The position numbers and the translations under genes were made by a program. Positions 47,974 through 58,380 of a stretch of 64,000 nucleotides of DNA are shown piece after piece (positions within the stretch are counted from its first letter, which is position 1; each line of letters opens with the position of its first letter). The stretch covers positions 1,408,001 through 1,472,000 of the forward strand of contig OY969811.1 in assembly GCA_963703315.1 (NCBI GenBank), in the 5' to 3' direction. Below the pieces are notes generated by a model that did no database searches, was not told the DNA's origin, and was given only the letters and a program-made list of their open reading frames with translations. This DNA comes from an uncultured cyanobacterium. Its GTDB lineage: Bacteria; Cyanobacteriota; Cyanobacteriia; Pseudanabaenales; Pseudanabaenaceae.

Positions 47974-48843
47974 TTAAAGTGCAGTTTCTGAGGCAACGAT
48001 CATTGAGCCAACGCCGCTATTCGTGAAAATTTCTAGTAACAGTGAATGCGGTACTCGTCCATCGACAATATGTGCCGCTTTCACACCTTGAGCTAGCGAT
48101 CGCACACAGCACTGCACTTTAGGAATCATCCCACCACTAACTACATTTTCATTCATCAGTTCTCTAGCTTTGCTGATCGTTAGACTGCGATAGAGAGTAC
48201 TAGGATCTTTGTAATTATGCAGAATTCCTGCAATGTCAGTGAGCAAAATCAATTTTTCGGCTCCTAATGCCGCCGCAAGCTCACCTGCGACCGTATCAGC
48301 ATTGATGTTGTAGGATTGCCCAGTTTCATCGGTTGCCACACTGGACACGACAGGGATATGTCCTGCTTCGAGCAAGGTGGAGAGCAGACCAATATTAATG
48401 CCACTGACTTCACCGACAAAGCCGATCGCGTCATTACCCTGTGGACGAGCGCGGATCAAGTTGCCATCTTTACCACATAGTCCCACACCAGAACCACCCG
48501 CAAGGTTAATCATTTCCACGATTTGCTTATTGACGCGCCCTACTAACACCATTTCCACGACTTCCATCGTCTCAGCATCGGTGACCCGCAAACCATCGAT
48601 GAACTGTGGTTTGATATTGAGCTTAGTCAGCCATGTATTGATTTCGGGACCACCACCATGTACTAGCACAGGGCGCAATCCCATAAATGACATCGTAACA
48701 ACATCACGGATCACGTCCTGTCGCAGGTTTTCTTCTTTCATCGCTGCGCCGCCATATTTGACGACAATGGTTCGCCCTGCAAATTGCTGCATATATGGCA
48801 GAGCTTCACTGAGAACCTGAACGCGATCGCTGTCTGTTAGCAT
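47974..48843 (-). CDS. argB: Acetylglutamate kinase
   Basis: [35 protein letters not shown]. Confidence 0.97.
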
Positions 48844-48972
48844 TTAACGCCTCGACTACTTAAAAAAATACTTTGATTAACCTTACAACCTCAATTACCC
48901 CCATAGACAAGCTAATTAAGCTTTTTATTAATATTCGATAACTTTCACGAAAGACAGAAGACTGAGTAATCC

Positions 48973-49079
48973 TTATACCAATTCACAAAAGTGTGCCAAC
49001 ACTTTTGTGAATTAAAAACCAAACCCAGTAAAGGTTTTCAAAACTAAAAATGGCGTAGCCATTTTTAGTTTTGGTATTA
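48973..49079. repeat. Family C element
   Basis: Near-identical to 26866-26972; its terminal TTA is the stop codon of the HNH gene. Confidence 0.88.
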
Positions 49080-49328
49080 CTCGCTGTATAGTCTGCGGAA
49101 ACGGGGATCGATTTTATCGCTTTTGATTTGATTGCAGGTAAAGCAGAGGGTTTGCAGGTTGCTAAGGTCGTTGCTGCCGCCTTTGGCTAAGGGGTGAATA
49201 TGATCGATGACTAGGCTTTTGGCGGTAAGGTCGATTTTGCGGCAACTTTGACATTGATAGTTATTGCGATCGAAGACATATTTTCTCACTTCGGGTGGGA
49301 TGTTAATACGTTGTGTTTTGTCTGCCAT
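49077..49328 (-). CDS. Small HNH endonuclease
   Basis: CQSC...IDHIHPLAKGGSN.LSNLQTLC..CN..K. Confidence 0.92.
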   Translation of the reverse strand: MADKTQRINIPPEVRKYVFDRNNYQCQSCRKIDLTAKSLVIDHIHPLAKGGSNDLSNLQTLCFTCNQIKSDKIDPRFRRLYSE

Positions 49329-49336
49329 AGATTGAG

Positions 49337-49822
49337 CTAGTCAGGTTGAGGATAAAAGTCTAAATCTAGTATTTCGAGAATACTAAAAGGACAAGCGACT
49401 GGAAAAGTTGCTAATGCTAAGTTTGTCTCTACCATTGCCTCCCGTAGAGCGCGTTGATAGGTTTTGTTTATCCATTCGCGATCACTAAGAAATCGTCGCA
49501 AACTGGGGCTTTCTTCTAAATATTCATCGATATTCAACCGTTCGCGATTGATGGTGATTTTCCAGCTATGGCTTTGGCGATCGCTTTGATATTTCCATTT
49601 GAGCAAGTGCATTAATATTAATCTCAATGAGCTTTGCAAGGAGTGTTGTTGACTTTTGCCCAAGTCTGCTATTTCCTCTATTAGATTTTCTAAATCTATA
49701 TCTTGCCATTGCTGCGATCGCAAAAGTTCTACGGTTTCTTCTGCCCAAGCCAAAAAATCGCTATTATACAAATCTCGTTTTTTAGTTGGAGTTAATAGAT
49801 CCATTGTTTTGCTCTCAATCAA
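49337..49822 (-). CDS. DUF29 family protein
   Basis: LY..DF..W, D.ENLIEEI..LG, HLLKW.YQ, SW..TI..ER, SPSL, FP..CPF. Confidence 0.9.
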   Translation of the reverse strand: MIESKTMDLLTPTKKRDLYNSDFLAWAEETVELLRSQQWQDIDLENLIEEIADLGKSQQHSLQSSLRLILMHLLKWKYQSDRQSHSWKITINRERLNIDEYLEESPSLRRFLSDREWINKTYQRALREAMVETNLALATFPVACPFSILEILDLDFYPQPD

Positions 49823-49837
49823 GCTTGACTAAAAATA

Positions 49838-50218
49838 TTATAATTCCGCAATCTTACGAATTTCATCTAATGGACTATCAAAATTTTCAACAATTTCTTC
49901 TGTAGATGACTCATCAGGAATAAATTGCAATTCTATTTTTAGTCTAATCTTTCCCAGTCGCCAACCCCTTTGATTGGTTGTCATCACACGACATGGAATA
50001 CCCTCTTCAAATTTTTTTAAGAACTCATCAGTTAAACTTATTAATCTCAGAATACCTTTTTTGAATTCATTAAATTCAAAAGTCTTAGAAATACTAAATC
50101 TGTTTTTAATAGCAGAAAGACAAATGCTATACTCTTCATCCTCAGTAAAAGAAATAACATCATCTAAACTTAAATTCTCTATTTTGTTACTCATAAAATT
50201 TAACTCTATATAAAACAT
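49838..50218 (-). CDS. KGK-domain protein (copy 3; alternative start 50194)
   Basis: EGIPCRVM....GWRLGKIRL....FIPDE...SPLDEIR. Confidence 0.82.
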   Translation of the reverse strand: MFYIELNFMSNKIENLSLDDVISFTEDEEYSICLSAIKNRFSISKTFEFNEFKKGILRLISLTDEFLKKFEEGIPCRVMTTNQRGWRLGKIRLKIELQFIPDESSTEEIVENFDSPLDEIRKIAEL

Positions 50219-50580
50219 TAAATACTAGTGTTACGAATTTCATCCAATGGACTTTCAGAAGAGAATAGAGTTTGATGATTTTCAGTTTTACTTACTTCAT
50301 CAGGAATAAATTTTAAACTTAATTTGACTTTACCCTTCATCCAACCCTGTCTCCGAGGTGTCATCATTTGGCAAGGAATACCTTCTTTGATCATTGGTTT
50401 AACATCATCCAGAAAATTTATTTTCTCAATTAGAGCGTTAATAAAAGTATCTGATCGAAATAAAGTGGAAATCTCTAATGTGTTTATTATATCTTCAATA
50501 AAAACTACAATTTTCTTGTCTTGATCCTCTTCAAAAGAAAGAACATCATCTGATTGAACAATCTCACTTTTTTCTGTCAT
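50218..50580 (-). CDS. KGK-domain protein (copy 2)
   Basis: EGIPCQMM....GWMKGKVKL...FIPDE...SPLDEIR. Confidence 0.85.
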   Translation of the reverse strand: MTEKSEIVQSDDVLSFEEDQDKKIVVFIEDIINTLEISTLFRSDTFINALIEKINFLDDVKPMIKEGIPCQMMTPRRQGWMKGKVKLSLKFIPDEVSKTENHQTLFSSESPLDEIRNTSI

Positions 50581-50639
50581 GTTTTTTATCTACTTAAATA
50601 ATTTTAGAATTCCTAAAGCATTTGTTGAAGCAATATTAC

Positions 50640-50984
50640 TTACTCAACATTATTGCGGATCTCATCTAGTAAGCTGTTAGAGTTATTATTAGATGAGTGT
50701 AAAATCTGATTATCCTCATTCTCTCTTTGGGTTTCATCGGCAATAAAATGCAACCCTAACTTCACTTTTCCTGATACCCAACCTTTTTGGCGAGTTGTCA
50801 TTACCCGACAAGAAATACCTTCTTTTAAAAGGCGTTTAGGATCAGATAAAGATTCTATCAAATTTCCCACTTTAAACAAGTAGGAGATATCCATAGCATT
50901 TATTAAATCCTCAATGGCTTTGTCTCCAGATTCATTAATTTCTACAACATCATCAGATTGTAAAAGCTCAAAGTCTTCTTGCAT
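50640..50984 (-). CDS. KGK-domain protein (copy 1)
   Basis: EGISCRVM....GWVSGKVKL...FIADE...LLDEIR. Confidence 0.82.
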   Translation of the reverse strand: MQEDFELLQSDDVVEINESGDKAIEDLINAMDISYLFKVGNLIESLSDPKRLLKEGISCRVMTTRQKGWVSGKVKLGLHFIADETQRENEDNQILHSSNNNSNSLLDEIRNNVE

Positions 50985-51068
50985 ATACTTATTATTAAAA
51001 ACTTAATTCTACATTTTGATAATTGTATCTTACAGTTATTGTATATTTGACAAAAATTATAATCTATA

Positions 51069-51290
51069 TTAAATATATACGCTTAAACGATGCTCACGAT
51101 CAGCAGCAAATATTAAACAAGCTCTAATATCTTCTTTTGTCAATTCTGGGAAATCGTCTATAATCTCATCCTGCGACATTCCAGATGCTAACCATCCCAA
51201 GACATCATAGACAGTGATCCGCATTCGGCGAATACAAGGCTTTCCGCCACGCTTATCTGGTTCAATAGTAATAACATTTTGGAAACTCAT
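51069..51290 (-). CDS. DUF433 family protein (antitoxin-like HTH), no adjacent PIN toxin
   Basis: P.KRGGKPCIR.MRITV.DVL..LA.GMS..EI..DFPELT.EDI. Confidence 0.9.
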   Translation of the reverse strand: MSFQNVITIEPDKRGGKPCIRRMRITVYDVLGWLASGMSQDEIIDDFPELTKEDIRACLIFAADREHRLSVYI

Positions 51291-51373
51291 AGATCTATCT
51301 TCCTAAATTAAGAATTATTATATCAAACAATAATTTACTGCTTAACATAATAACTCCTAACTTGAAATTAACT

Positions 51374-53851
51374 TTAATTTCCTGAATCGATCGCCTCATC
51401 CACAATAAAAGATTCAGCATCAATTACATCAGTAATAACTGTGGGAATTAATAAATCAGTCTCGCTGATGATTGGTAGATTCTTGCGTGATAAATCTAAT
51501 ACTTCTAAACATTGATTAATGCCAGAAACTGCCTCATTGTAAATAGCAATATTTTTCTCTACAGCAACTTGTAAACTACGATTTTTGTCGAGCTTTACCT
51601 GTGCCTCCTTCTCCAAAGTTTGCGCCAAATAATCACGAGCATTGTCGTATTGCTGCAAAATTGCATTCGATTGTTTTTCTACACTTGTTAGCAAATGTGT
51701 ACTCAAAGTTTGATTAATTGATTGACGGAAAGTACGAATAATCGTGTCCTTTACCTTCAACTCAAAATCAAGCTTTAACAACTGCCGAATTGCTGGCTCA
51801 GCCTCGATCATGCTCTGATAGTCATAGCCACGACAGGCTTGCTGCAAGGTTTGACGCAATTGGTAGATTGAGTTTGTCCCCTCTGCATAAAACTCTGGAC
51901 GTTCGCGCACATAGCGATCGCATTCTGTTCTGGCTTCATTGACCAAGGCATCAGTTGCTGTGATTGCCAGCTTTTCTAGCCTCGCCTCAATGCCGCCATC
52001 GTTACCCAATAGGCGATAAAGTTCCCGATAATATTCCGTTTTCTTGATCGACTCGATCAAATTCTGGAAGAAATTTTCCACAATCCTTTGCGAATTCTCC
52101 ACCAACACATCTTCTAGCTCATTGGCTAAATAGTAGAAACCTTCCGCCAAAATCCCCATCACAGGCACAACGGAATTGCGGCGGTGACTGGCTTGGGCGC
52201 GTTGATGCACATCGGCAACCGAGAAATAGCCAATCAACTCATCCAAACGCCGCACCATGTTCTCTTTGAGCTTGCGATAGTCAGCTTCCAATGCTTGATT
52301 CTTATTGCTTGCCACCGCATCATTTAGCTCTTGAGCAATATGTTCGCGGAGGCGATCACCTATTTGTTTGAGGTCATGACCGAGCTTCTGTAACTCCTGC
52401 AACTTGATCGCAGCAATATCGCGGGGTTGACTTTCGAGCTTGTGCCACGAATCCAGATAGGACTGACGCAGGGCAATACAAATGGGCTGCAAGTCATCAG
52501 CAAGATCGGCAAATAGCAAGGGGCGCTTCTCATTGGTGAGATAATTGGTAATTGCGTTGCGAAACTCCTCAATGCCGCTATCCTTAATCAGTTGATTGAT
52601 TACATCCGTTCCCAACTTGTCAAGTAAGCGCACATACTTTTCATTCTTAATGCTGGTTTTCAAAACGTTGGGAGGAATCTCAAATTTGTCAGGATTGAGC
52701 TTGCCAGAGACAAGACAATAGCTGTTGAATTCATTCACAAATTGCGGCGTATCCTCTTCACCACCTACAGATTTGACGCTTTCCGCAAAGATAGAATCTA
52801 GACCAAAGCGATCGCCAATACTGGTATTTCTAATTTGACTGCCATAAAATCCCAACAATCCACTGGTTTTATAGATTCTCGAAGTATTGCGAAATTGGCT
52901 CGAAATCGTTTGATTGAGACGCTGGAGCAATTGACTATTCATCCAAGTCTCATCAATGCGATTGAACACATAAAATACGCGATCGCGAATTCCTGCGTTA
53001 CTTTGAATCTTCTCACTGAGTTCCGTTTCCTCAGAAGTCAGTTCTCCAGATGAGGCGGTTTTCAGTACAAACACAACTGCGGAAGTGTCAGGATTTTCAA
53101 TTTTCTGGAAGGTTAAAGCGGCATCTTTTTTGACAGGGGCATCAATTCCGGGGGTGTCAATGATCACATTGCCATCTTGCAACAGAGGATGATTGCAATA
53201 ATATTCCACTCGTTTGAGAACTGCACTATTGGCTCCCCGTCTGGCATAGTCAGCCGCTTTCTTGAGATTGTCAAAACCAAACTGTTCCATCGAATAGGTA
53301 GAATTAGCCACCGAACTAATGCGATCGCGATTATTGATAAAACCTTCAATCAAGAGATTCAACGCATCCGCATCTTTGGCACGTTTCGATTTGCTCTTGC
53401 CTCCCTCCTGCTCGATTACCGCAAGAGTTTGAGTTTGCAACTGTTTCAGCGCATCGATTTGATTGATATTAGTCGGTGCGACCTGTCCGATTAATTGCGA
53501 TAGGGCTTGAATCTGTTCGCGCACTTCCACTTCATTCAGGAAGGTCAAGACCACACGCTCTTCACCAGCTTTAGCAAAGGCAATTTTGCATTCTGTCCCC
53601 GTAGCGTGTCCCTCAGCGCTGTAAAGTAATTCCCGTTCTAATAGCGCGTTAATCAACATCGATTTACCCGCACTAAAAGCCCCCGCAAACACAATCTCAA
53701 AGGTCGGCGCGATCGCCTTTCTTAATGAAGACTGGACAATACTGCCATCCTGTTGCGATCGCAGGGTTGGCTCCTGTTGCAAAAGTTGTAAAATCGCTTC
53801 AACTTGTGACTGTAAATCTTGACATTGTGGAAAAAGAGTTGGCAAAGTCAT
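51374..53851 (-). CDS. Dynamin-like GTPase
   Basis: G1 GAFSAGKS, G2-like HATGT, G3 DTPG, G4 NRID, long helical C-terminus. Confidence 0.88.
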   Translation of the reverse strand: MTLPTLFPQCQDLQSQVEAILQLLQQEPTLRSQQDGSIVQSSLRKAIAPTFEIVFAGAFSAGKSMLINALLERELLYSAEGHATGTECKIAFAKAGEERVVLTFLNEVEVREQIQALSQLIGQVAPTNINQIDALKQLQTQTLAVIEQEGGKSKSKRAKDADALNLLIEGFINNRDRISSVANSTYSMEQFGFDNLKKAADYARRGANSAVLKRVEYYCNHPLLQDGNVIIDTPGIDAPVKKDAALTFQKIENPDTSAVVFVLKTASSGELTSEETELSEKIQSNAGIRDRVFYVFNRIDETWMNSQLLQRLNQTISSQFRNTSRIYKTSGLLGFYGSQIRNTSIGDRFGLDSIFAESVKSVGGEEDTPQFVNEFNSYCLVSGKLNPDKFEIPPNVLKTSIKNEKYVRLLDKLGTDVINQLIKDSGIEEFRNAITNYLTNEKRPLLFADLADDLQPICIALRQSYLDSWHKLESQPRDIAAIKLQELQKLGHDLKQIGDRLREHIAQELNDAVASNKNQALEADYRKLKENMVRRLDELIGYFSVADVHQRAQASHRRNSVVPVMGILAEGFYYLANELEDVLVENSQRIVENFFQNLIESIKKTEYYRELYRLLGNDGGIEARLEKLAITATDALVNEARTECDRYVRERPEFYAEGTNSIYQLRQTLQQACRGYDYQSMIEAEPAIRQLLKLDFELKVKDTIIRTFRQSINQTLSTHLLTSVEKQSNAILQQYDNARDYLAQTLEKEAQVKLDKNRSLQVAVEKNIAIYNEAVSGINQCLEVLDLSRKNLPIISETDLLIPTVITDVIDAESFIVDEAIDSGN

Positions 53852-53947
53852 GCAAGTTAATCCTTGATTTTTTTAGAAATTTGATGCTTTGTCATGAATA
53901 TATCATTAATATATCGCTCATAAAATATAAAGCTGTCAAATTCTAGG

Positions 53948-53967
53948 CAAGGGGCTTAAGCCCCTTG
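53948..53967. repeat. Short perfect palindrome (small dispersed repeat-like)
   Basis: caaggggcttaagccccttg. Confidence 0.6.
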
Positions 53968-53978
53968 TTTTCAGGTTG

Positions 53979-55139
53979 CTAGATACCTGCGATCGCCATT
54001 TCAAACGCTTGACAAACAGAAGAAATTGAGAACTTGGTTTGGGCTTGGATATAGGCAGTCTCCACCATTTTTTGAGTTGCTTCGCGATCGCTAAAAATCT
54101 GCTGCATCGCTGCCGCCAGTAATTGTGGATCGTTGGGAGGAACTAATAAACCTGTAACTCGATGTTCGATAATTTCACTAGTACCGCCGCCAATAGTAGC
54201 GATCGCAGGTCTTTTGGATAATTGCGCCTCTACAATGACGCGCCCAAAGGGTTCGGGAGCAGTGGAACAATGGGCGATCGCGTCACAGGCTTTCATTAAA
54301 GCAGGGATATCTTGACGAAAGCCGAGCCAATGTACGCGCCCCTTGAGACTTTCTTGGGCAGCAATATTTTTCAATTTCTCGGTATATTCCGCTTCACCGA
54401 ATAGAGCATCACCGACTAGTAATACATGGACATCAGGGAGTTGACTCGCTGCCTCTAACAAAATATGTTGACCCTTCCAATAGGATAGACGGCTAAACAT
54501 TCCTATCAAGGGGCGATCGCGGGGAATGCCTAACTCTTCTCGCAAAGTTTTTTGATTGTCATTAATCTGATCAAACTTGGCACTATCAAATCCGTTATAG
54601 ACCATGCGTAATAAGCGGTGATTCCCCCCTGCGGCAATAAATGCGTCTCCTGTAGCCTGTGAATTCACAATTACTCGCGTGGCACACCAATTAGCCAATG
54701 TAACGGCGATTTTGCGGTTAGTGGCGCTAAAAATATCGGAGGTTAAGATATCGTGTAAATGCCAAACTACAGGCGCACCACCCAATAATCTGGCGATCGC
54801 CAACACCACAAATCCCTTTTGATTATTGGCATGAATCAAATCGAAGTCTTTGCTTTTGTTTGCAACTTGTTTACCCAGTCGCCAGAGATCACCAATAGAT
54901 TTCAGCGATGCTAATCCACTCGATACTTTGACATCAGCAAGCGATCGCGATGCTCCTAAAACTTCGACCTTTACGCCTAGATCTTCTAGTCGATTTTTTA
55001 AGATGCCATCAGTTAGTAATACCACTTGACTCGTATCGCGATAGGCATGGGCAAAATCGAGCAGACAAAGTTCGCCACCACCTAAAACTGCGGTATAGCT
55101 CACAAATAAAATTTTCTTTGTATTTTTCTTTGTATTCAT
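53979..55139 (-). CDS. Glycosyltransferase family 4
   Basis: LGGGE, RLSYWKG, LGFRQD, EPFGRVIVEA. Confidence 0.92.
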   Translation of the reverse strand: MNTKKNTKKILFVSYTAVLGGGELCLLDFAHAYRDTSQVVLLTDGILKNRLEDLGVKVEVLGASRSLADVKVSSGLASLKSIGDLWRLGKQVANKSKDFDLIHANNQKGFVVLAIARLLGGAPVVWHLHDILTSDIFSATNRKIAVTLANWCATRVIVNSQATGDAFIAAGGNHRLLRMVYNGFDSAKFDQINDNQKTLREELGIPRDRPLIGMFSRLSYWKGQHILLEAASQLPDVHVLLVGDALFGEAEYTEKLKNIAAQESLKGRVHWLGFRQDIPALMKACDAIAHCSTAPEPFGRVIVEAQLSKRPAIATIGGGTSEIIEHRVTGLLVPPNDPQLLAAAMQQIFSDREATQKMVETAYIQAQTKFSISSVCQAFEMAIAGI

Positions 55140-55172
55140 GTCTGGTAGTGTAATCAACTTTGAGTAATTCTT

Positions 55173-55232
55173 TCTAAACAAACTCTAAAGGAAGAATCTT
55201 CACCATGCTACAAGGATGGATTCAGATTAGGA
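55173..55232 (+). pseudogene. Relic copy of the kdpA promoter box and first codons
   Basis: 17-bp match to 58516-58532 and 22-bp match to 58693-58714; encodes MLQGWIQI, as does kdpA. Confidence 0.8.
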
Positions 55233-55438: not shown

Positions 55439-55472
55439 TTTATAATGAAAGGTGAGGTTATGCAGTGAAAAG

Positions 55473-55709
55473 ATGACGCTAAATAATTTGTTGGAAATAA
55501 AAGGAATTATCCATCGCGATCCTGAAATTATGAGTGGAGTCCCTGTTTTTAAGGGAACTCGTGTTCCTTTGAAAACACTTTTTGACTATCTTGAAGGCGA
55601 TGATGGATTAGCTGAGTTTATTAATGACTTTCCGTATCTCAAGACTCAAACTATGAAGGTTTTAGAAAATGCGGCTAAGTTATTAATCGCTCAGGAACGT
55701 GCTGCTTGA
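55473..55709 (+). CDS. DUF433 family antitoxin-like protein
   Basis: DPEIMSG.PVF.GTRVP..TLFDYLE. Confidence 0.88.
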   Translation: MTLNNLLEIKGIIHRDPEIMSGVPVFKGTRVPLKTLFDYLEGDDGLAEFINDFPYLKTQTMKVLENAAKLLIAQERAA

Positions 55710-56068
55710 TGTTGATATTAATGGACGAAAATCTACTGAGTAAAAAGCTTAAACAGCCTTTTTTAAGGAGCGGTTTTGATGTTTACAATGTTGATGATAT
55801 GGGATGGCGAGGATTTAAGGATAAAGAAATTCTCGATTTGGCTGAGAAATATCCCTTCGACATTTTTATTACGGCTGACAAAAATCTGCGGTATCAGCAA
55901 AATTTGATTGATAAAGCCTTGAGAATCGTGATTTTAGATACTCGTAGCACTCGCCCTGATTATTTATTGCCGATGATGGAAAAAATCAATAATTTTGTCT
56001 TATCTTTGTCAATTGGAGAAGTAGTATCTATCAACGATGTGGGCGAGATTAAGCGAGATTTTCTGTAA
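55706..56068 (+). CDS. DUF5615/PIN-like putative toxin
   Basis: ILMDENL, GW.G.KD..IL..A, FITADKNLRYQQNL; overlaps the DUF433 stop. Confidence 0.82.
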   Translation: MMLILMDENLLSKKLKQPFLRSGFDVYNVDDMGWRGFKDKEILDLAEKYPFDIFITADKNLRYQQNLIDKALRIVILDTRSTRPDYLLPMMEKINNFVLSLSIGEVVSINDVGEIKRDFL

Positions 56069-56214: not shown

Positions 56215-57822
56215 ATGAACTTAGAAGTTGGAAACTTATTAAATAGTCGCTACGAAATTGTAGAAGAATTAAAAGTAGGTGGAATTGGTAAAATTTTTTT
56301 GGCTAAAGATTACTTAAGATTTGATAAGCGCTGCGTGGTGAAACAGTTTATATATGAATATTTTGATGGCAAGCAGGAAATAAGAGAACTATTTCAAGAA
56401 GAAGCAAGAATTCTTTTAAAACTTGAAAACTACTCACAGACACCCAATTTACTTGCCTATATTCACGAAAAAGATTGTATGGTGCAAGAATTAATTCATG
56501 GTCAAAATCTTGAAGACGAACTGAGACAGGATGGTAAATTCAGCGAACAAAAAGTTTTAGACCTGCTTGCTGAAATATTACCTGTATTAGAGTTTGTACA
56601 TAATCAAGGTATTATTCATAAAGATATTAAGCCATCTAACGTTATGAGGAAAGAACCAAGTGGCAAGCTAGTATTACTTGATTTTGGTATTTCTAAAAGA
56701 CTATATGAAAATCAAATAAATTCAACTATTGAAGACAAAAATAACAAGCTTGCGACTCAAAAAAACTATAGCTTTCCAGATGGAACTGGAGGTTATCAAG
56801 CACCAGATCGTCATTCCTCTTTTTCTAGCGATCTCTATTCGCTGGGAGCTACTTGTGTTCAACTGCTAACTGGAATACCCCCAGAGGATCTACAGATTCT
56901 TTATGCTGATTCATGGATAGACATTGTTAAGGCGAATATTTCAGATAACACCTATAAAATTATTGAAAAATTATTGGCAACTAATCCACTAGACCGTTTC
57001 CAGACAGCCCAAGATGCTATTCGGGAGCTTGAAAATATAGAGTATATAAAACGCAAGAATAACGTTAGTCTTTCAACATCATTACTATCTTCTCCTGTTA
57101 ATCACTACAAATTTCAAGCAATTAACACTCTAGCTGAATTAAGTGAGGATGCACAAATAGCCATTCCCCATCTTATTAAGTTACTCAAATCCCAAGATTA
57201 TCAGATAAATTCAGGTGCATTGAGTACTTTAGTGAAAATTGGCTCAGAGGCAGTTTTACCTCTTGTAGATCTACTCGAAGAGCAAAGAGTAGATCTACGA
57301 AAAAATGCGATTTGTGCATTAGAAGGAATTGGGAAAGATGCTTTAGCTGCAACATCTAAAATAATTGAATTACTAGAAGATCCAGAAGGTGAAATTCGCT
57401 GGTATGCAACTATTGCAATAGGTAAGATAGGTTCGTCAGCGAAGAAAGCAATTCCTTCTCTTATTAAAAGACTTAGAGATGAGAAAGCTGGTGTTCGAGC
57501 ATACGCAGCATGGGCGTTAGGAAAAATAGGAATAGAAGCCAAAGATGCTTTACCAATAATGCTTGAAACATTAAGGGATGAAAAAAATGAACATTCATTT
57601 TTGGCAGTATTAGAGGCACTTGAAGTGATTGGTTATGACATCACTTCAATTAATATTAGTTATGAGAATGATGGAACAACAAAAAATGCAAAAGAGCATA
57701 TTACATATCAGAGAGAAGAACAACGTAAAGATTTAGAAACAAAAAAAATGGGTGGGGGTATCGTGATAAACCAGCGACGACCACTTAGCGCCAATACTCC
57801 TCCGCAGAAAACTGATTTGTAG
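56215..57822 (+). CDS. Ser/Thr protein kinase with C-terminal HEAT repeats
   Basis: GGIGKIFLA, CVVKQF, IIHKDIKPSN, LLDFG, DLYSLG; repeats such as AIPSLIKRLRD...VRAYAAWALGKIG. Confidence 0.88.
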   Translation: MNLEVGNLLNSRYEIVEELKVGGIGKIFLAKDYLRFDKRCVVKQFIYEYFDGKQEIRELFQEEARILLKLENYSQTPNLLAYIHEKDCMVQELIHGQNLEDELRQDGKFSEQKVLDLLAEILPVLEFVHNQGIIHKDIKPSNVMRKEPSGKLVLLDFGISKRLYENQINSTIEDKNNKLATQKNYSFPDGTGGYQAPDRHSSFSSDLYSLGATCVQLLTGIPPEDLQILYADSWIDIVKANISDNTYKIIEKLLATNPLDRFQTAQDAIRELENIEYIKRKNNVSLSTSLLSSPVNHYKFQAINTLAELSEDAQIAIPHLIKLLKSQDYQINSGALSTLVKIGSEAVLPLVDLLEEQRVDLRKNAICALEGIGKDALAATSKIIELLEDPEGEIRWYATIAIGKIGSSAKKAIPSLIKRLRDEKAGVRAYAAWALGKIGIEAKDALPIMLETLRDEKNEHSFLAVLEALEVIGYDITSINISYENDGTTKNAKEHITYQREEQRKDLETKKMGGGIVINQRRPLSANTPPQKTDL

Positions 57823-57849: not shown

Positions 57850-58380
57850 TCAAATCAAAGTAAATCCTTCGGGAATATGTTCGATCGCATTGGCAACTGC
57901 ATCAAGATAATCGTCAAACTCCATTCCATGCGCCTTAGCAAACAACCTCAGCGTATCCGCCTTAGTGCTACCCTCACCCTTCTCAATGCGACTGACTTGG
58001 CGCTCTGATAAGCCGATAATATCTGACTGACGCAGTTTATATTTTTTGCGTAAAGTCGCGATCGCCTTGCCAAACACTTGATCGTGAGTTGACTTGAGAG
58101 CATCAAATTTTTGCTTCCATTTAGGATCGGTTACATAACGGAAAGCATCAAGATCGAGATGAATATCTGCACTTTCCCAATAAAGATAACTACCATCATC
58201 AGCGATCGCAAAGTTGCTACGTTCGCTGGTGGGAATACGCTTTAAAGCTGGTAATGAAGAAAAGGGAACTTCAAATTTTTCCATGCTACAACTAAACACC
58301 AACAAGCGATCGTCAATCACAGTTGCTTCAGCAATTAATTGTTCCTGCGCTTCCATAGTTGAGGTAATAGTATTTTGCAT
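57850..58380 (-). CDS. DUF2442-like + XRE-HTH protein, possibly 5'-truncated
   Basis: IADDGSYLYW...DIHLDLD and C-terminal LRQSDI.GLSERQVSRIEKG HTH. Confidence 0.7.
   Translation of the reverse strand: MQNTITSTMEAQEQLIAEATVIDDRLLVFSCSMEKFEVPFSSLPALKRIPTSERSNFAIADDGSYLYWESADIHLDLDAFRYVTDPKWKQKFDALKSTHDQVFGKAIATLRKKYKLRQSDIIGLSERQVSRIEKGEGSTKADTLRLFAKAHGMEFDDYLDAVANAIEHIPEGFTLI

Follow-up and report, generated by a model that had tools for sequence, protein, structure and literature searches.

A small HNH protein is a conserved partner of the SynDLP-type GTPase and its variable KGK genes in cyanobacteria

We analysed a window of 64,000 nucleotides (positions 1,408,001 to 1,472,000 of contig OY969811.1) from an uncultured cyanobacterium of the Pseudanabaenaceae, in which seven genes at 49077-53851 had been proposed as an undescribed defence or conflict operon. 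A genome survey and a set of linked loci revealed that its core, a dynamin-like GTPase followed by a variable array of KGK genes and a terminal HNH gene, is a conserved module, as the original prediction had supposed. The small HNH gene is a true third member of the GTPase and KGK module, in a partnership that is real and under-described. Our favoured reading, to which we give a probability of roughly 0.4, is that the products form a nuclease tethered to the membrane and gated by the GTPase, with KGK proteins as exchangeable sensors, that acts on incoming DNA or phage.

All seven open reading frames are on the minus strand at the positions originally given, and the Pfam assignments, each above the curated cut-off, agree with the description of seven co-oriented, closely spaced genes. 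From GTPase to HNH, the intergenic gaps are 83, 84, 59, -1, 15 and 8 nucleotides. The run lies between a group-1 glycosyltransferase gene (53979-55181) and a putative argB (47974-48843, a name taken from the original prediction). The features are as follows (pI, isoelectric point):

51374-53851, minus strand: SynDLP-type (KGK-clade) dynamin-like GTPase, 825 amino acids, core of the module (Pfam Dynamin_N, 8e-17; phmmer match to PDB 7zw6)
51069-51290, minus strand: DUF433 protein, 73 amino acids, passenger (Pfam DUF433, 4e-26)
50640-50984, minus strand: KGK1, 114 amino acids, pI 4.6, variable cassette (Pfam KGK, 1.4e-10)
50218-50580, minus strand: KGK2, 120 amino acids, pI 4.7, variable cassette (Pfam KGK, 6.5e-15)
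49838-50218, minus strand: KGK3, 126 amino acids, pI 4.7, variable cassette (Pfam KGK, 2.9e-16)
49337-49822, minus strand: DUF29 protein, 161 amino acids, passenger (Pfam DUF29, 1.7e-47)
49077-49328, minus strand: minimal zinc-binding HNH protein, predicted nuclease, 83 amino acids, pI 9.2, conserved GTPase partner (Pfam HNH_5, 4.4e-17)
53897-53905, minus strand: candidate extended -10 promoter element TGnTATATT, 54 nucleotides upstream of the GTPase start (motif recurrence)

The GTPase and its HNH partner

By sequence comparison over its full length, the window GTPase is an ortholog of SynDLP (Slr0869 of Synechocystis sp. PCC 6803), with residues 6-806 matching PDB 7zw6 in phmmer at E 6e-295. 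The extended P-loop GxxxxGKS/TxL/INALL/I described for the KGK clade (PMC5827413) is present as GAFSAGKSMLINALL, and so are the remaining G motifs. Among 78 homologs, G57, G62-K63-S64, T84, D232, P234-G235, N297 and D300 are invariant. The disulfide-position cysteines C10 and C781 are kept in 70 and 72 of the 78 homologs, respectively, and both align to SynDLP cysteines; C777 is among those of the SynDLP bundle signalling element disulfide (PMC10104851). SynDLP structures have been solved (PDB 7zw6, 9em7-9em9). In vitro the protein forms oligomers, hydrolyses GTP, binds anionic (thylakoid) lipids and fuses liposomes (PMC10104851). It is non-essential; its authors leave the in vivo role open, suggest that it might mend membranes harmed by phage or other stress, and anticipate accessory partners that keep futile GTP hydrolysis in check (PMC10104851). 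Neither an HNH nor a KGK domain was fused to the GTPase among the 120 near-length homologs listed, no wider search for fusions having been made. One genome carries a second SynDLP-like paralog, 47% identical, in a 941-residue open frame (G305:C86:8160-10148).

The operon is thus not undescribed, because its GTPase-KGK link has been published as the KGK clade, that is, the cyanobacterial dynamin-like proteins with a KGK gene downstream (PMC5827413), and its GTPase belongs with a protein of solved structure. The window locus is a further member of this clade. In the supplement of that paper, the genes downstream of 19 KGK-clade rows include 'HNH nuclease' in 3 and 'restriction endonuclease' in 1. 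We found no discussion of an HNH-GTPase link in the literature searched on KGK, SynDLP and dynamin-like or HNH defence, a search whose scope did not extend to the supplements of PMC10104851 and PMC4759255.

We then used 251 genomes of the class, accepting GTPase matches at E <=1e-50 and keeping HNH matches in 83 genomes at E <=1.7e-14 (one match in a 376-residue frame and all weaker rows were dropped). The GTPase was matched in 85 of the 251 genomes and not found in 166. Both genes were present in 75 genomes, the GTPase only in 10, the HNH gene only in 8 and neither in 158, counts in which kin are not independent. In 55 of the 75 genomes with both, the HNH gene lies on the same strand at most 3.2 kb downstream of the GTPase. 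Outside the window's genus the two are linked in 52 of 60 genomes, and this genus supplies 12 of the 20 unlinked cases. Even after separation the pair is retained: among 42 genomes of the genus, 34 have an intact GTPase, and the HNH gene is present in all 34 (adjacent in 15, not adjacent in 19), while the five genomes without HNH are also without an intact GTPase. Likewise, in 39 of 41 genomes, mostly Nostoc, that have no GTPase at the HNH locus, a GTPase match was found elsewhere. Some genomes also suggest that the two genes decay together: in the GTPase-less genome G013 the HNH match carries an in-frame stop, G243 has a stop-ridden GTPase remnant adjoining its HNH gene, and G076 and G251 retain KGK-HNH without the GTPase. 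Several HNH-only genomes look like relics. Where the KGK genes are gone, the HNH gene can directly follow the GTPase (L044, L056, L095, L163).

Of 149 aligned HNH homologs, 148-149 retain residues C26, C29, D42, H43, N57, C62, C65 and N66. These comprise Asp-His, Asn and Asn/His positions and two CxxC pairs, to which we presume the usual catalytic and metal-binding roles, and by these motifs the protein is a predicted nuclease. Its closest solved relative is PDB 5h0m (E 2e-10) and its closest named relatives are from Pseudanabaena (80-82% identity), which makes this the likely genus of the host. The ratio of non-synonymous to synonymous substitution rates (dN/dS) is 0.04-0.15 where measurable, with dS near saturation. 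HNH proteins are basic (pI 9.4), whereas the KGK proteins are acidic (median pI 4.9).

A modelled GTPase-HNH complex scored 0.37, versus 0.00 for the best of three controls, with a contact agreement between runs of at least 98% and a predicted local distance difference test (pLDDT) value of at least 81 for the partner. The mark for such scores was reached by 116 of 157 solved pairs and 2 of 215 mismatched pairs. Since at scores <=0.60 it was reached by only 18 of the 157 solved pairs, but by both mismatches, the model lends weak support to binding of the HNH protein to the GTPase.

The KGK cassette and other genes of the interval

KGK copy number was counted in 54 linked GTPase-HNH loci, one per genome (a wider set of 97 is partly redundant). 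There were 0 copies in 13 loci, 1 in 16, 2 in 7, 3 in 10, 4 in 4, 5 in 3 and 7 in 1. The window KGKs have positional orthologs in L118 and L140 (50-68% identity; KGK1 is 61% identical to the first KGK of each), with dN/dS of 0.16-0.41 versus 0.04-0.12 for the GTPase. In L035 the GTPase is 95% identical to that of the window, yet the KGK is replaced by a 38%-identical tandem-fused form. With copies from 0 to 7, faster change and replacement in L035, the KGK array is indeed the variable part of the module. Within the window, KGK1 is 50% identical to KGK2 and 39% to KGK3; the true start of KGK3 is probably Met9, since the alignment puts this residue at the start of KGK1 and KGK2. Contigs of sequencing runs X2 and X3, from one study, join across most of KGK2 (window 50262-50568), so there is a close relative without this copy.

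The KGK block had been described as AT-rich and free of HIP1 octamers, in contrast to a HIP1-rich GTPase gene. The first part holds: its GC content is 30.4% versus 42.2% for the genome (4.57 Mb), and only 0.4% of equal-sized windows of the genome have a GC content <=30%. There are 0 octamers in the block, but the same is true of 16% of such windows, and their absence, taken alone, is not significant; the GTPase gene has 6 octamers, a density of 2.4 per kb that is close to the genome average (1.8 per kb).

Of 163 KGKs, 128 end in a C-terminal LD-x-(I/L)R tail (SPLDEIR-type), and so do 9 of 107 GTPases, all in one family. KGK sequences hint at dimers, since tandem fusions retain a single tail. 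The last KGK gene often overlaps or abuts the HNH start. An AlphaFold2 model of KGK2 reached a pLDDT of 80 and a predicted template modelling score of 0.60. Neither the KGK monomer nor a natural tandem fusion had a match in Foldseek searches of PDB, BFVD (monomer only) or VIA-wide. The structure closest to the KGK models was the GYF domain 3fma (Z 3.5, root-mean-square deviation 3.0, 55 aligned residues); such results identify the fold neither as new nor as a known one. Sequence profiles gave no KGK match in PDB, and the ESM Atlas returned only KGK clusters. Among viruses, there was no match in 50,697 phage records; in IMG/VR one query found none and another a single marginal match (E 7e-4).

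KGK genes also form GTPase-independent loci beside ccsA and/or tilS (L220-L222, L225, L232-L235 and L239). Two families have KGK in 22/22 genomes and the GTPase in only 4 and 11, and KGKs associated with ccsA or tilS may explain this excess. At three of 20 GTPase-less loci, a short KGK gene directly follows a helix-turn-helix-type gene (L229:3513-3833, L230:3636-3932, L231:3530-3778; Pfam HTH_3 in two of the three). The DNA there is mobile-looking, phage- or integrative-element-like, and the three KGKs cluster together in the KGK tree.

Between GTPase and HNH, DUF433 occurs in 2 of the 54 linked loci (6 of the wider 97) and DUF29 in 1, the window itself (2 of 97), and tblastn found 14 further DUF433 and 19 further DUF29 matches in this genome. 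Both are therefore passengers, as originally suspected. DUF433-DUF5615 (PIN) pairs have a toxin-antitoxin role. Complete pairs are present at window 55452-56068 and in L038, where DUF433 and then DUF5615 are retained. The DUF433 of the operon is likely an orphan antitoxin that lost its DUF5615/PIN partner, since the PIN gene is missing beside it. In other strains the GTPase-HNH interval holds TacAT, HicAB, ParE-like, PemK, Uma2 and DUF2252 genes and a HaeIII-type restriction pair, and because such varied inserts occupy the same place, the interval collects cargo. Phormidium loci L200, L201 and L210 have a 152-residue gene and a 924-residue protein with a ParA-like P-loop stretch at this position, neither of which matched Pfam or PADLOC under the cut-offs applied.

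Outside the operon, the space between HNH and the putative argB (window 48972-49079) is taken up by an intergenic repeat that occurs in multiple copies; in all four sequencing runs contig depth there is very high and loose ends are numerous. A perfect 8-bp inverted repeat at 53948-53967, which separates the stop of the glycosyltransferase gene from the promoter region of the GTPase, is a possible terminator. The AT-rich DNA beyond the glycosyltransferase contains, in addition to the complete DUF433-DUF5615 pair, a Ser/Thr kinase gene with HEAT repeats (56215-57822) and a DUF2442-HTH fusion (57850-58380).

Regulation, inheritance and rival explanations

Of 107 GTPase upstream regions, 14 have TGnTATATT at -51 to -55, and every one of these belongs to the genus of the window (shuffle mean 0.77). 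The pattern was picked after seeing the data, and its promoter function is a candidate one. Another motif, GGGAAnnCT, occurs 41-76 nucleotides upstream of 16 of 107 GTPase genes from eight families, with 0 occurrences further upstream, 0 on the reverse strand and a shuffle mean of 0.66; it was noticed in the data and then matched to the published SigJ J-Box (GGGaAtacT-type, PMC6495340). This J-Box-like motif is missing before the window GTPase and from the genus of the window, where TGnTATATT occurs instead; 20 further GTPase genes fetched from mostly Nostoc genomes lack it too. A palindrome, GTAA-nn-TTAC, mostly 69-85 nucleotides upstream of the GTPase, occurs in 20 of 107 regions (shuffle mean 0.36), largely from heterocyst-forming genera (for example L066, L089, L167, L173, L182 and L202). 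A promoter and terminator scan of the locus gave chance level. In two RNA-labelled public runs (relatives' contigs of 85-111 kb, without strand or level) there was no cover over KGK1-2, which proves nothing.

In Synechocystis, ssr1473 is presumably a member of the slr0869 operon. In a lexA mutant of this organism slr0868-slr0871 and ssr1473 were up 4-16-fold, which fits their co-regulation, and the changed genes include pilins (PMC4759255). We rejected LexA/SOS control for the window operon: this genome has no match to PF01726 (LexA), and 0 of 108 upstream regions have a canonical or loose LexA box. According to the supplement of PMC6495340, all three annotated dynamins of N. punctiforme, Npun_F0558, Npun_R6512 and Npun_R6513, including the model BDLP, are in the SigJ regulon. 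They are induced about 40-85-fold in hormogonia, and the main text does not mention dynamin (PMC6495340). Npun_F0558, SigJ-dependent and with a J-Box, was rejected as a member of the SynDLP clade since it is another dynamin type; at eight loci, the first 1.5 kb behind its type of promoter motif encode a different protein without a tblastn match to the window GTPase. We also rejected Npun_R2726, at the syntenic place, as a 2.4-kb GTPase gene, since only 1926 nucleotides separate its start site from the one used by the convergent Npun_F2725, and since it has a different promoter. The N. punctiforme expression data do not cover the SynDLP/KGK clade.

Because the HNH gene stays with the GTPase across cyanobacteria and its product is weakly predicted to bind the GTPase, the trio is likely one membrane-tethered DNA-cutting unit. 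The dynamin would form an oligomer on inner membranes, likely bind the HNH protein and gate its predicted nuclease activity. The KGK proteins would serve as variable sensors or adaptors that dock via their shared C-terminal SPLDEIR-type tail. Such a module would be a conditional surveillance machine, triggered by phage or other incoming DNA. A nuclease gated by a dynamin, if real, would tie membrane remodelling to DNA cutting in an unusual way. In a more elaborate version, which we consider rather unlikely, this would be a chromosomal, vertically inherited immune machine whose membrane dynamin polymer directly carries and activates the minimal HNH nuclease, with swappable KGKs giving threat specificity and SigJ inducing it in many lineages when cells are piliated and exposed to phage and foreign DNA.

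Several observations weigh against a surveillance nuclease. The GTPase is single-copy and vertically inherited, without a plasmid match, and its tree (FastTree, 82 rows) follows the family labels with 20 changes, where 19 are the least possible and shuffled labels average 54.7. Flanks are mostly housekeeping: 73 of 114 flanking proteins (from 36 loci) were scanned against NCBIfam and are mostly metabolic or unnamed. Ten GTPase genomes are without an intact small HNH gene; one of them keeps half of it, and seven belong to one family that includes arrays of 5-7 KGKs. No KGK is found in the 13 linked loci mentioned above, no dN/dS >1 was seen for KGKs, and KGKs are present at loci that have no GTPase as well; of 20 loci of this kind that were fetched, 9 adjoin ccsA and/or tilS. 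The score of the GTPase-HNH complex is in a range more often wrong than right unless the pair was likely beforehand. In N. punctiforme, the syntenic stand-alone HNH gene (Npun_F6302) is low and flat in hormogonium development.

When the 114 flanking proteins were compared with PADLOC at 1e-15, 8 matched (there was no control set), of which seven were generic (ABC ATPase, sigma factor, helicase, a partial PycTIR match) and one DndB-like. A typical mobile defence system does not fit, because inheritance is vertical, flanks are housekeeping, the GTPase has no plasmid match and some lineages lack KGK or HNH; the anti-phage defence role of the original prediction was not borne out. We nevertheless favour a conflict role over pure housekeeping, because the cassette is fast and swappable, the nuclease motif is kept, the SynDLP ortholog is non-essential and presence is patchy.

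A somewhat unlikely but serious rival is housekeeping or developmental membrane remodelling (repair of thylakoid or cytoplasmic membranes, or remodelling as hormogonia become motile). Here the HNH-fold protein and the KGKs would be regulatory accessories that hold back oligomerisation or wasteful GTP hydrolysis. It suits the vertical inheritance and housekeeping flanks, the lipid binding and liposome fusion of SynDLP and the accessory proteins that its authors expect (PMC10104851). The J-Box-like motif before 16 of 107 GTPase genes in eight families points the same way, as do the three N. punctiforme dynamins of the SigJ regulon, none of them placed in the SynDLP clade (PMC6495340). However, the motif occurs neither in the genus of the window nor ahead of the 20 GTPase genes of mostly Nostoc genomes, and remodelling leaves unexplained why His43, Asp42 and Asn66 are retained and why KGKs expand to 7 copies and are swapped between close relatives.

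DNA processing tied to pili, natural competence or membrane chromosome handling, with the dynamin positioning the HNH protein to nick incoming or trapped DNA, seems improbable. It would accommodate the J-Box-like motif, the presence of dprA in the N. punctiforme SigJ regulon and the rise of a comEC-like gene in hormogonia (PMC6495340), the lexA-mutant response of slr0868-slr0871 and ssr1473 along with pilin changes (PMC4759255), and the automatic JGI label 'replication fork clamp-binding protein CrfC' on many GTPase homologs. But the 73 flanking proteins scanned include no named competence or pilus cluster, with one weak PilW-like tetratricopeptide repeat match; LexA and its canonical box are absent from this genome and from the 108 GTPase upstream regions, respectively, and 166 of the 251 genomes gave no GTPase match. 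Distinctly improbable is that GTPase and KGK are the only unit, with HNH as an independent gene whose closeness to them reflects ancestry: separation in 19 of 34 genus genomes and many Nostoc, the 10 GTPase genomes without HNH and a co-occurrence inflated by shared ancestry speak for it, but linkage extends over many families whose flanks are unrelated, HNH comes straight after the GTPase where KGKs are gone, losses of both coincide within one genus, and the modelled complex gives weak support to binding.

Comparison with known systems

Septu, which pairs the ATPase PtuA with the HNH protein PtuB, has an NTPase-gated nuclease mechanism. The window shares with it an NTPase adjoining an HNH protein, and weak PtuB matches (best 4.5e-5), as a 'works like' analogy only. 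Its NTPase is an ABC ATPase and that of the window a dynamin; none of the seven window proteins matched PtuA, and the window module is vertically inherited. PtuB profiles are 206-227 amino acids long versus 83 for the window HNH protein, and their matches cover the HNH core only.

In Eleos (LeoABC), which like Bacillus DynA is an anti-phage system of the dynamin type, LeoA and LeoB/LeoC dynamin-domain genes form one operon. A dynamin-family GTPase is common to both systems, with weak N-terminal matches of the window GTPase to LeoA (2e-9) and LeoBC (8e-6). However, the window has one GTPase gene rather than LeoA plus LeoB/C, and the LeoA match covers residues 24-73 only. Bacillus DynA is a two-headed dynamin of about 1190 amino acids, whereas the window GTPase is single, with 825; its N-terminal match to DynA, 39 bits, is far below the NCBIfam cut-off of 1600 bits. 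Unlike in Eleos and DynA, the partners of the window GTPase are KGK and HNH.

SynDLP and the KGK clade are much closer: similarity runs over the full length, the G motifs and the cysteines at the two disulfide positions are shared, and KGK genes (three PF08872 genes) follow downstream. Differences are a stalk loop that reads HPRN in SynDLP and HRRN in the window (R in 23 of 78 homologs), and the window's three KGKs with DUF433 and DUF29 inserts. The conserved small HNH is only a table entry in the KGK-clade paper (3 of 19 rows, PMC5827413). For SynDLP, with its solved structures and in vitro activities, the HNH protein, the KGK cassette and the SigJ-type motif thus name candidate accessory factors and a candidate regulator.

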